This document shows, piece by piece, positions 33,587-61,093 of a DNA stretch of 64,000 nt. Within the stretch, counting starts at the first letter, position 1; each line of letters opens with the position of its first letter. This DNA comes from a phage. The stretch lies in sequence record PZ445527.1. The stretch is one strand, 5' to 3'. Made by a program: the position numbers and the translations under genes. The notes under the pieces are model-generated. The model ran no database searches. It saw nothing but the letters and a program-made list of their open reading frames with translations, and was not told the DNA's origin.

Positions 33587-33994
33587 TTATTCGCCTGCGG
33601 CTTGTTTTACTTCATCGGCAACGCCTAACAGCTGCGCCACGGCGTCCAGCGTTTCTAATTTTGCGCTTTCCAGGGATGCCAGATCGTCAACGTCTTTGAT
33701 AATGCCGGAATCAATGGCATGTTTTGCAATAACGCGCACGTAATGCGCTTTGCGGATAGAACTACCGCCGCCAACTTTGCGCGGCTTATCGCTTTTCTGA
33801 TACGCTTTCGCGCTGGTCAATTTTGAGCGAACGGACACGGGAGAAGTCGCGCCAACTGCTTTTGCAATTTCTCTCAGGCCGTCGCTGTTGGCGAACTCCA
33901 AGCCGTTCTCATTGATTAGCTGTTGATACATGGTAACAGCCTGCTGGGTGTTTTCTTCATTCCAAGAGAATTTTGCGGTTTTAACGTTAGTCAT
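33587..33994 (-). CDS. A2: A2-like pre-early DNA-binding protein
   Basis: 135 aa; position upstream of A1 as in T5. Confidence 0.65.
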   Translation of the reverse strand: MTNVKTAKFSWNEENTQQAVTMYQQLINENGLEFANSDGLREIAKAVGATSPVSVRSKLTSAKAYQKSDKPRKVGGGSSIRKAHYVRVIAKHAIDSGIIKDVDDLASLESAKLETLDAVAQLLGVADEVKQAAGE

Positions 33995-34090
33995 GATATA
34001 AACTCCAATTAATTTAATTTAAGGGATAAGATTAACACAATGTTAATCGTTATATACCCCGAACTGCTGGGGTATATAAAGTTAACACTA

Positions 34091-34342
34091 TTACGCTACA
34101 GCTTCCCATTTTTCGTTACGTTGAACAACCTTTACAACGTCGCCGGATTTAACGCGAACGTTATAAATAGTTTTCCCGTTGTTACTCCGTTCCGTTTCAG
34201 CGTAAACCGCATCAATTACATCAAACGGCATAAGCGACGCGCCTTTAATGCGTTCGGCTTTTCCGGTTAGTTCATCCGTTTTAGTAACGAAAGGAATGAA
34301 GACGGATTGACCAATTTTCGGCGCATTAGTAACGTTTTTCAT
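34091..34342 (-). CDS. hypothetical pre-early protein
   Basis: 83 aa ORF upstream of A2. Confidence 0.45.
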   Translation of the reverse strand: MKNVTNAPKIGQSVFIPFVTKTDELTGKAERIKGASLMPFDVIDAVYAETERSNNGKTIYNVRVKSGDVVKVVQRNEKWEAVA

Positions 34343-34569
34343 AGTATAAACTCCAGTTTATTTCGTGGATTGTTCCGCATTACCTGCTAAAAAGTAACAG
34401 GTAATAAGAAAAAATCCGCTCGCCAATATAATCAATTTAAAGAACTCCACTCAGGCCGCTATATCCCGTTAGGGGGCGGGGCACATTTTGGCAAGTACCG
34501 GCCGTCAAATTGTATCAAGTTATCGCTCTTATCGAACTGGGTACATCTTAAAGCCTATCGGCTAGGGTG

Positions 34570-56529: not shown

Positions 56530-56604
56530 TGGTAGTTAGTAGTGGAATCGAACCAGGTTCCACGGTTTACAAGACCGTTGCATCGCCAGCAATGCTTTAA
56601 GAGC
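56530..56604 (-). tRNA. tRNA-Thr(UGU)-like element with unpaired acceptor stem
   Basis: CCA end, T-loop TTCGATT, perfect anticodon arm ACGGT-CTTGTAA-ACCGT, D-arm GCAT-TGCTGGCG-ATGC; the 5' seven nucleotides do not pair with the 3' acceptor strand; abuts HNH gene stop. Confidence 0.35.
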
Positions 56605-57398: not shown

Positions 57399-57474
57399 TG
57401 GAGCGGCTAGAGGGAATCGAACCCTACTCAGCGAGGCTTGGAAGGCCTGCGACACAACCCGTGTGCTTAACCGC
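57399..57474 (-). tRNA. tRNA, anticodon tentatively UCC (Gly)
   Basis: encoded CCA, T-arm TAGGG-TTCGATT-CCCTC, 7-bp acceptor stem with one G-U; anticodon loop CTTCCAA; atypical short D-loop. Confidence 0.5.
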
Positions 57475-57482
57475 TTATTGTT

Positions 57483-58406: not shown

Positions 58407-58476
58407 AAGGAATAGAAGGACTTGAACCTTCATGAGTTAGACCATTTAACTCAACCGCTTTTTAGGGTATATTTCT
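58407..58476 (-). ncRNA. aberrant tRNA-like element
   Basis: canonical T-arm GAAGG-TTCAAGT-CCTTC and acceptor-like ends, but only one internal hairpin (TGAGTTA-AATGGTC-TAACTCA); no separate anticodon arm found. Confidence 0.3.
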
Positions 58477-59802: not shown

Positions 59803-59879
59803 TTTGGCGCGACTGATGGGATTTGAACCCACATTCCCTCCCGTGATAGGGGAGTACCATTACCAAGCCAGCCACGGTC
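59803..59879 (-). tRNA. tRNA with atypical anticodon loop CTATCAC (anticodon uncertain)
   Basis: CCA encoded, T-arm GTGGG-TTCAAAT-CCCAT, acceptor 6 of 7 paired, perfect anticodon stem CTCCC/GGGAG. Confidence 0.45.
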
Positions 59880-59890
59880 GCATAATTTAT

Positions 59891-60076: not shown

Positions 60077-60178
60077 GCTTGTTTCCTCAGTTATTAATGA
60101 AAATGGTATCTGTGGCTGAATTAGATGTCAGCAATGATAGCTGGTTGGCTACCGGTTTACTTAACTCTACACAGAATT

Positions 60179-60261
60179 TGGCGGGCCGTGTAGGATTCGA
60201 ACCTACGTTGTCTTTCGACACGGATTAACAATCCGCCGCCAAACCGCTTGGCTAACGACCC
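60179..60261 (-). tRNA. tRNA-Asn(GUU) with unusually long variable region
   Basis: acceptor GGGTCGT/ACGGCCC, D-arm GCCA-AGCGGTT-TGGC, anticodon arm GCGGA-TTGTTAA-TCCGT, 13-nt variable region GTCGAAAGACAAC, perfect T-arm, discriminator G, CCA encoded. Confidence 0.65.
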
Positions 60262-61009: not shown

Positions 61010-61093
61010 TGGTGCATCGTGCTGGATTTGAACCACCAACCCCGAAGGGCACGGATTTACAGACCGCTGCAATAGCCATTCTGCCAACGATGC
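61010..61093 (-). tRNA. tRNA-Tyr(GUA)
   Basis: acceptor GCATCGT/ACGATGC, D-arm GCAG/TTGC, anticodon loop CTGTAAA, long variable arm GCCC-ttc-GGGG, discriminator A, CCA encoded. Confidence 0.82.

Follow-up and report, generated by a model that had tools for sequence, protein, structure and literature searches.

A long-variable-arm tRNA-Asn in a T5-like phage belongs to a widespread viral family

The window studied here, a 64,000-nucleotide stretch of DNA (sequence record PZ445527.1) from a T5-like phage (Demerecviridae), encodes on its minus strand a tRNA-Asn with anticodon GUU whose variable region is 13 nt long and forms a hairpin. The textbook rule is that bacterial long variable arms are reserved for the tRNAs for Leu, Ser, Tyr, and Sec. 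The window gene encodes a genuine tRNA, very probably a working tRNA-Asn with a class II-like design, and the long-arm family to which it belongs is widespread in viruses and essentially restricted to them. We hypothesize that the tRNA is charged by asparaginyl-tRNA synthetase (AsnRS) and that its selected arm makes host tRNA-cutting defences miss it, a reading to which we give about an even chance. A conserved, covarying extra arm on an Asn tRNA, common in many phage families and nearly absent from cells, departs from the textbook rule.

The tRNA-Asn gene and its fold

ARAGORN called a tRNA-Asn(gtt) of 83 nt at exactly 60179-60261 on the minus strand, one of twelve tRNA genes that it found on that strand between 57.4 and 63.9 kb of the window. 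The Rfam tRNA model (RF00005) matched the same interval at full length with 58.4 bits (gathering score 29, E=6e-11); the match spans model positions 1-71, and a 10-nt insertion falls in the variable region. On the minus strand the gene begins GGGUCGU UA GCCA AGCGGUU UGGC G GCGGA UUGUUAA UCCGU, continues with the variable region GUCGAAAGACAAC, and ends GUAGG UUCGAAU CCUAC ACGGCCC G CCA. Its parts, all on the minus strand, are as follows.

60179-60261: complete tRNA-Asn(GUU), 83 nt with encoded CCA (ARAGORN, RF00005, and fold)
60255-60261: 5' strand of the acceptor stem, GGGUCGU, which pairs with ACGGCCC at 60183-60189
60238-60252: D arm GCCA-AGCGGUU-UGGC, with a 4-bp stem that includes A13-U22 and a 7-nt loop that includes C16
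60220-60236: anticodon arm GCGGA-UUGUUAA-UCCGU (from the sequence)
60227-60229: anticodon GUU, positions 34-36 (ARAGORN places the anticodon at gene position 33)
60207-60219: 13-nt variable region (fold and covariation)
60210-60219: variable arm, with stem GUC at 60217-60219, loop GAAA at 60213-60216, and stem GAC at 60210-60212 (fold)
60207-60209: unpaired AAC on the 3' side of the variable arm (fold)
60190-60206: T arm GUAGG-UUCGAAU-CCUAC (from the sequence)
60182: discriminator G73 (from the sequence)
60179-60181: genome-encoded CCA 3' end (from the sequence)

The gene has everything expected of a canonical elongator tRNA (a 7-bp acceptor stem, D, anticodon, and T arms, T loop, and score), and the top pairs of its acceptor stem are G1-C72, G2-C71, and G3-C70. 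Its variable region is of the class II kind, which is at least 10 nt long with a stem-loop (here GUC-GAAA-GAC), and not the 4-5-nt class I loop of cellular tRNA-Asn. The D arm is not of the class II type, which has a 3-bp stem, a non-Watson-Crick 13:22 pair, and an extended loop. When folded without constraints, the minimum-free-energy structure is a cloverleaf plus the GUC/GAC hairpin with its GAAA loop (-33.9 kcal/mol, z = -3.1). The neighbouring tRNA-Tyr (61010-61093) also carries a 13-nt arm, GCCCUUCGGGGUU.

An initial annotation, made from the letters alone, had described the 13-nt variable region, the GUU anticodon, G73, a GTC-GAAA-GAC hairpin, and a long arm on the neighbouring tRNA-Tyr. 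Sequence, ARAGORN, RF00005, and the fold bear out all of these. A better fold with a standard 5-nt variable loop had been named there as a result that would speak against the long arm. We ruled this alternative out: the covariance-model alignment, ARAGORN, and the energy fold all put the excess in the variable region, and no such fold exists because all of the excess length sits between the anticodon and T stems.

Covariation and geometry of the variable arm

In an alignment of 16 homologs, the variable-arm helix shows double-sided changes in all four of its pairs, and 88 per cent of its cells are paired, comparable to the canonical helices. Columns 48-58 contain UA in nine sequences, GC in four, GU in two, and AU in one; columns 49-57 contain CG in nine, UA in three, GC in two, and AU in one; and columns 50-56 contain CG in ten, AU in two, and UG in one. 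The acceptor helix in the same alignment is 90 per cent paired with double changes in 7/7 pairs, the T arm is 100 per cent paired, and compensatory changes were found in every helix. Over the whole structure, 93.4 per cent of cells are paired as against 64.6 per cent in shuffles, none of 500 shuffles equalled it, and sliding the pairing partners lowers the paired share to 33-40 per cent.

Across 48 distinct long-arm genes, the best arm stem averages 3.23 bp, compared with 2.44 (sd 0.13) in shuffled arms, and a GAAA loop caps the arm in 16 of them. Arm length ranges from 11 to 22 nt across the family, and the stem sequence is highly variable. Judged by these patterns of sequence change, selection maintains the arm.

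The initial annotation had called the arm 'Tyr-like', and the label holds for the family. Most long-arm stems have 3-4 bp, with 3-4 unpaired bases after them, which agrees with phage tRNA-Tyr (modal 3' spacer of 3) and not with Ser and Leu (mode of 1 in both; Ser stems are also longer, at 5-6 bp). The window arm, with 3 bp followed by AAC, has the ~3-bp stem and ~3 unpaired bases of a tRNA-Tyr arm rather than the 5-7 bp and ~1 unpaired 3' base of a tRNA-Ser arm (the mode of our Ser set is 5 bp with a 1-nt spacer). A class II-type D stem of 3 bp, often with G13.A22, is present in 26/49 long-arm and 19/108 short tRNA-Asn genes.

Distribution in phages and cells

We used BLAST to compare the long and T5 tRNA-Asn alleles with 50,697 phage records. 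Homologs are present in 638 GenBank phage records, 526 of which cover at least 80 per cent of the gene in a single piece, and 270 records match the window tRNA-Asn at 95 per cent identity or more. The gene is 100 per cent identical in Salmonella phages GEC_vB_N3, VSe12, and HMD-P4, and SP15 carries a long-arm tRNA-Asn with 96.4 per cent identity to it. At a threshold of at least 90 per cent identity, the long allele is found in ~276 T5-like records and the T5 allele in ~136; SB9- and SuperGirl-type long alleles form a further set with ~80 per cent identity to the window allele. About two thirds of T5-like phages thus have a long-arm tRNA-Asn and about one third do not. The initial annotation had named, as a second result that would speak against it, a long loop that is standard in all T5-like tRNA-Asn genes. 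It is not, as T5 itself has a class I gene at this locus, though the long allele is the commoner of the two; given these counts, the arm is nothing peculiar to this genome but a trait common in the lineage. GEC_vB_N3 has no second tRNA-Asn, and the long-arm gene is the sole tRNA-Asn in several phages.

Homologs of 83-87 nt also occur outside the T5-like phages, in T4-like phages (Serratia CBH8, Enterobacter CC31, and many Klebsiella phages), Phapecoctavirus, Marfavirus F48, Proteus PM135, and the Pseudomonas jumbo phage 2PS, and all of them have GUU, G73, and an encoded CCA. Novosibvirus is also within the range of the family. The homolog in Klebsiella phage KpnM6E1 is annotated as tRNA-Cys. 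For annotation in general, isotype models may mis-score long-arm tRNA-Asn genes.

We then searched IMG/VR with a pattern consisting of TGTTAA, a gap of 19-30 nt, and a T-loop motif. Among the 120 matches listed were ~45 very diverse long-arm tRNA-Asn genes. A scan that allowed both short and long gaps found ~8 long genes among ~100 tRNA-Asn genes, roughly 8 per cent in what is a small sample.

The picture in cells is different. The E. coli tRNA-Asn has 76 nt and a 5-nt variable loop, and it is matched at 100 per cent in 5,425 of 5,426 complete genomes (21,695 copies); BLAST found no long-arm homolog in these 5,426 E. coli genomes. The same long-gap pattern was applied to bacteria and archaea with one genome per species, and among the 120 matches listed there were two true long-arm tRNA-Asn genes. 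At 101 of the 120, ARAGORN found no tRNA gene, so the pattern matches there are presumably due to chance. Both cellular long-arm genes sit in dense arrays (35 and 18 tRNAs within 8 kb) that break the rules in other ways too, e.g. with short-arm tRNA-Leu. The array of 35 (L185) comes from a Thermoguttaceae metagenome-assembled genome, and the array of 18 is L241. Separately, the chromosome of E. coli 730V1 (L361 83-149) has a 67-nt annotated tRNA-Asn with a GUU loop and a truncated 5' half. Its likeness to the phage gene is limited to the T arm and 3' end, and it may be a remnant at an integration site.

We found no description of a long-arm tRNA-Asn in the searchable literature, which covered reviews of tRNA identity and non-canonical tRNAs and the papers on PARIS, retron-Eco7, and anticodon-loop mutations, though an older description in subscription journals is possible. 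A paper on bacterial Schlafen proteins held nothing relevant on a link to type II tRNAs.

Identity and charging

In E. coli, AsnRS identity consists of the anticodon and G73, and G73 is an antideterminant for the tyrosyl- and leucyl-tRNA synthetases (TyrRS and LeuRS); A73 and U35 are the main TyrRS determinants (PMC9976931). The window tRNA has both Asn elements, G34-U35-U36 at 60229-60227 and G73, and lacks the A73 and GUA of a tRNA-Tyr. The elements are conserved in the family, with GUU in all members (the loop is CUGUUAA or UUGUUAA in 48/49) and G73 in 43/49. Because GUU and G73 are what AsnRS reads, the window tRNA is most likely charged with Asn by the host enzyme, and it would decode AAC and AAU. 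The initial annotation had suggested that an anticodon-shifted or hybrid tRNA could alter decoding. The conserved identity elements, together with G73 as a bar to TyrRS and LeuRS, speak against this, and we regard the gene as probably a faithful tRNA-Asn, with mis-decoding unlikely. Long-arm tRNA-Asn genes also let one ask, in a natural setting, what added structure AsnRS, EF-Tu, and the ribosome will accept in a class I isoacceptor, which is useful for the engineering of orthogonal tRNAs.

A possible role in evading tRNA nucleases

The evasion that we propose would work as follows. The tRNA-Asn would be co-transcribed with the other genes of the minus-strand, T5-type tRNA cluster. G73 should prevent charging by TyrRS or LeuRS, and the short arm stem with its 3-nt 3' spacer should prevent charging by the seryl-tRNA synthetase (SerRS). 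The arm and the D-loop C16 would give the phage tRNA-Asn a shape unlike the host's over the face from the 3' anticodon-stem strand to the D loop. Host defences that deplete tRNA-Asn (e.g. PARIS AriB) would then bind or cut the long-arm form poorly, and AAY codons would thereby still be readable during infection.

The initial annotation had also raised escape from host tRNA-targeting nucleases, and published findings on AriB and PtuAB make a defence-evasion role of the arm plausible. AriB depletes E. coli tRNA-Asn(GUU) by a cut between positions 40 and 41; an AlphaFold 3 model has the AriB dimer span from the cleavage site to D-loop U16-U17; a U16 to C change impairs AriB cleavage of tRNA-Lys; and T5 tRNAs for the AriB targets Lys, Thr, and Asn together rescue cells (PMC12409363). 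Retron-Eco7 PtuAB cleaves tRNA-Tyr within its variable loop, and the tRNA-Tyr of SP15 needs its variable loop for PtuAB evasion (PMC12673091). In the window tRNA-Asn, the arm emerges three nucleotides from the AriB cut position. The host sequence at the AriB site is kept (U36AAUC/C41, the slash marking the cut), and the D loop has C16 where the host has U16.

Several points weigh against this account. As the anticodon stem, including the AriB site UAAUC/C, is identical to the host's, any AriB evasion would need to act through shape or the D loop and not through the cleavage site. A class I tRNA-Asn at this locus serves T5 and ~136 relatives well, so a T5-like life cycle does not require the arm. 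Long arms are also seen in ~2-3.6 per cent of other phage class I isotypes, and part of the pattern may therefore be a generally relaxed architecture. Class II aminoacyl-tRNA synthetases approach the tRNA from the variable-loop side, and the tolerance of AsnRS for the extra arm is assumed here. G1-C72, G2-C71, and G73 are features of E. coli tRNA-Ser, and some serylation of the window tRNA could occur. Finally, in the one published use of a long-arm tRNA-Asn that we found, the SP15 tRNA served as a negative control and gave no rescue from PrrC170 (PMC11555353).

We also considered published data on phage Bas34, which needed the T5 tRNA-Asn for rescue from PARIS despite encoding its own (PMC12409363). 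Bas34 is Escherichia phage SelmaRatti (MZ501103), and we dropped it as a test of the long arm since its tRNA-Asn (77 nt) is class I.

Extra arms are not confined to Asn. In the same viral loci, arms with GNRA loops occur on tRNAs for Lys (UUU, CUU), Thr (UGU), Ile (UAU, GAU), and Met, and occasionally there are extra arms on those for Glu, His, Gly, Val, Pro, Cys, and Trp. Where loci had been chosen for their long tRNA-Asn, 18/133 tRNAs for Lys, Thr, Ile, and Met were long-armed, compared with 11/318 for other class I isotypes; in a sample not selected for arm length, ~2-3.6 per cent of class I tRNAs were long. Asn is the isotype that most frequently gained an arm, and Lys, Thr, Ile, Met, and Asn are all ANN decoders, the group to which the PARIS AriB targets Lys, Thr, and Asn belong (PMC12409363). 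Armed non-Asn isotypes often share a contig with a long-arm tRNA-Asn. Examples of armed versions of normally armless isotypes on viral contigs are:

L061 407-494 and 668-755
L062 1394-1479
L088 1655-1739
L259 (tRNA-Met)
L277 (tRNA-Gly)

The opposite break is also seen: many tRNA-Leu genes in phages and tRNA arrays are only 74-77 nt and have no long arm (37/98 phage genes by a parser count). Phage tRNAs thus break the class I/II rule in both directions. Examples of short tRNA-Leu genes are:

L256 5839-5915
L185 3209-3283, 3284-3357, 3456-3530, and 5471-5545

One could extend the proposal to a general phage counter-defence, in which Tyr-type arms on normally armless tRNAs keep identity and present a silhouette that misfits nucleases docking across the anticodon stem, variable region, and D loop; this is possible, and we hold it only tentatively. 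If the arm does protect against PARIS, retron, or PrrC-type nucleases or against colicins, it would be a structural escape route beyond the known point mutations of the anticodon loop and stem. It would also be a reason why these phages carry their own tRNA-Asn.

Origin of the arm and alternative explanations

Origins were compared over 48 fixed core positions in a set of 613 phage tRNAs. The nearest neighbours of the 49 long-arm tRNA bodies were Tyr in 13 cases, Asn in 12, Gln in 6, and Ser in 5, and long-arm tRNA-Asn showed no within-genome affinity to Tyr. The nearest non-Asn class was Tyr for 13/49 long-arm and 0/21 short tRNA-Asn genes. In pairwise alignments with the window tRNA-Asn, the window tRNA-Ser(GCU) scored 22 and the tRNA-Tyr 17. 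Both class I and class II styles occur among the D arms and acceptor stems of the family; several origins are as likely as one.

The arm could be a historical legacy. A class II ancestor, most simply a phage tRNA-Tyr, would have become a tRNA-Asn by A36 to U (GUA to GUU, one base apart) and A73 to G, and the arm would have been kept by co-adaptation with the core and have no function of its own. The arm has the geometry of a tRNA-Tyr arm (13 nt in both window genes, with 3 bp in the stem and 3 nt in the 3' spacer), a hand count puts the core positions common to the window Asn and Tyr bodies at ~73 per cent compared with ~60 per cent for window Asn and E. coli tRNA-Asn, Tyr is the nearest non-Asn class for some long-arm but no short genes, and about half of the family has a class II-type D arm. 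However, the nearest-neighbour signals are weak and show no Tyr affinity within genomes, and many members have a typical tRNA-Asn acceptor (U1, UCC...) and a class I D arm, which points to several separate origins or insertions. Nor would one expect a neutral relic to make up ~8 per cent of viral tRNA-Asn genes while absent from all 5,426 E. coli genomes, or to retain covarying stems with GNRA caps in phages that are very distantly related. We think a pure legacy unlikely. Alternatively, the GNRA-capped arm might be bound by a phage or host factor (for modification, repair, processing, or delivery) or act as a decoy for a long-arm nuclease such as PtuAB. The strong bias to GAAA and other GNRA loops (GAAA in 16/48) would fit this; overexpressed tRNA-Tyr neutralises the toxicity of PtuAB, which cuts its variable loop (PMC12673091), and the PARIS authors suggest that some viral tRNAs may be competitive inhibitors (PMC12409363). 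However, the ordinary tRNA-Ser arms in our data set often have GNRA loops too, the analysis yielded no candidate partner, and the wide variation in arm length (11-22 nt) and stem sequence argues against a shared sequence-specific partner in such different phages. We consider this explanation quite improbable.

It is very improbable that the tRNA is a class II body charged by SerRS (or TyrRS), with AAY partly read as Ser or Tyr in the manner of nematode nev-tRNAs and bacterial allo-tRNAs. The case for this is that SerRS reads the Ser-type long arm and ignores the anticodon, and that G73, G1-C72, G2-C71, and C11-G24 with a long arm are E. coli tRNA-Ser features (PMC9976931); the window tRNA has all of these, C11-G24 included, and some relatives have arm stems of 4-6 bp. 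Yet the family conserves GUU and G73 but not the Ser-like acceptor (U1 in 30/49), the arm has 3-4 bp and a 3-4-nt spacer as against the 5-6 bp and 1-nt spacer of tRNA-Ser, and G73 blocks TyrRS and LeuRS. In the phages where it is the sole tRNA-Asn, proteome-wide replacement of Asn by Ser would be costly. As for the gene being a pseudogene, a prediction artefact, or an assembly error, we give this next to no credence. Its unusual length is all that points that way, and set against it are perfect 7/4/5/5-bp helices, a canonical T loop, an encoded CCA, a high covariance-model score, 100 per cent identity in several independent isolates with 270 records at 95 per cent or more, and compensatory changes in every helix.

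Other features near the tRNA-Asn gene

Directly 3' of the tRNA-Asn gene (60104-60178, minus strand) is a homolog of T5 'RNA3', which is annotated in T5 as a putative tRNA-like stable RNA. It folds as a long hairpin with ACCA at its end (-19.7 kcal/mol, z = -3.4), and none of 200 shuffles folds as well; a search of Rfam gave no match for 60104-60178. The RNA3 homolog is conserved beside long-arm and class I tRNA-Asn alleles alike.

In T5, the 3' end of the open reading frame T5.069 (L009 7953-8525, equal to T5 33952-34524) and the class I tRNA-Asn allele overlap, and the same spot in relatives is annotated as a T5orf172-domain protein or putative homing endonuclease. The overlap and these annotations suggest that the two tRNA-Asn alleles are exchanged as cassettes, in a process that involves a mobile endonuclease gene.

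The window also has a tRNA-Asp (59805-59881, minus strand) with the anticodon AUC (A34), where T5 and GEC_vB_N3 have GUC. It has U8 for G8 and a C6.A67 acceptor mismatch as well, and the best match among 88 related GenBank phage records is 96.1 per cent identical, with no exact copy. To our knowledge, A34 in bacteria is otherwise confined to tRNA-Arg. Possible readings are gene decay, a rare allele, and an escape variant.

Three further matches on the minus strand fell below threshold and were not called by ARAGORN: 57402-57475 (tRNA-Sec model, 30.9 bits), and 56534-56604 and 58407-58476 (tRNA model, 24.5 and 22.2 bits). They are probably degenerate tRNAs or tRNA-like stable RNAs of the kind known from T5.

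Comparison with known systems

The host counterpart, E. coli tRNA-Asn(GUU) (asnT/U/V/W), is class I and has GUU, G73, and the anticodon stem GCGGA/UCCGU in common with the phage tRNA. The anticodon loops differ solely at position 32 (C32 in the host, U32 in the phage), with U36-A-A-U-C-C41 kept, and the phage tRNA retains the contexts U33-G34-U35 (Tgt) and U36-A37 (t6A). The two differ in the variable region (a 5-nt loop, AUGUC, in E. coli and a 13-nt hairpin arm in the phage), in the acceptor (U1-A72 and C2-G71 in E. coli, G1-C72 and G2-C71 in the phage), and in the D loop, which has U16 in E. coli and is shorter with C16 in the phage.

T5 has its tRNA-Asn(GUU) (T5t17) in the same slot, upstream of 'RNA3' and downstream of tRNA-Cys, with the same GUU, G73, and encoded CCA, and this tRNA contributes to rescue from PARIS AriB toxicity (PMC12409363). 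The T5 gene is class I (78 nt, 5-nt variable loop) and its anticodon stem has diverged near the AriB site, whereas in the window tRNA the anticodon stem is still that of the host and the long arm is present instead. The two are alternative alleles in T5-like phages.

With class II tRNA-Tyr(GUA), the window tRNA-Asn shares a 13-nt variable region, a 3-bp stem, a 3-nt 3' spacer, and G34-U35, and the anticodon arm of the window's own tRNA-Tyr is similar to its own; tRNA-Tyr has A36 and A73 where the tRNA-Asn has U36 and G73. The SP15 tRNA-Tyr is the closest functional parallel, as a tRNA of a T5-like phage whose variable arm decides the clash with a nuclease, PtuAB (PMC12673091). Its arm is native to the isotype and differs from the host's in length and sequence, whereas the window arm is on a normally armless isotype.

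Nematode nev-tRNAs (PMC7954030) and bacterial allo-tRNAs (PMC7609411) likewise combine a long arm with the anticodon of a class I amino acid. They are charged according to their bodies (with Leu, Ser, or Ala) and hence recode, and allo-tRNAs have 8/4 or 9/3 acceptor/T helices. The window tRNA-Asn has the standard 7/5 architecture, and so is structurally not an allo-tRNA, and it lacks the A73 needed for Leu. Since it keeps the anticodon and G73 identity set of its own isotype, faithful decoding would be expected from it, unlike the nev- and allo-tRNAs.

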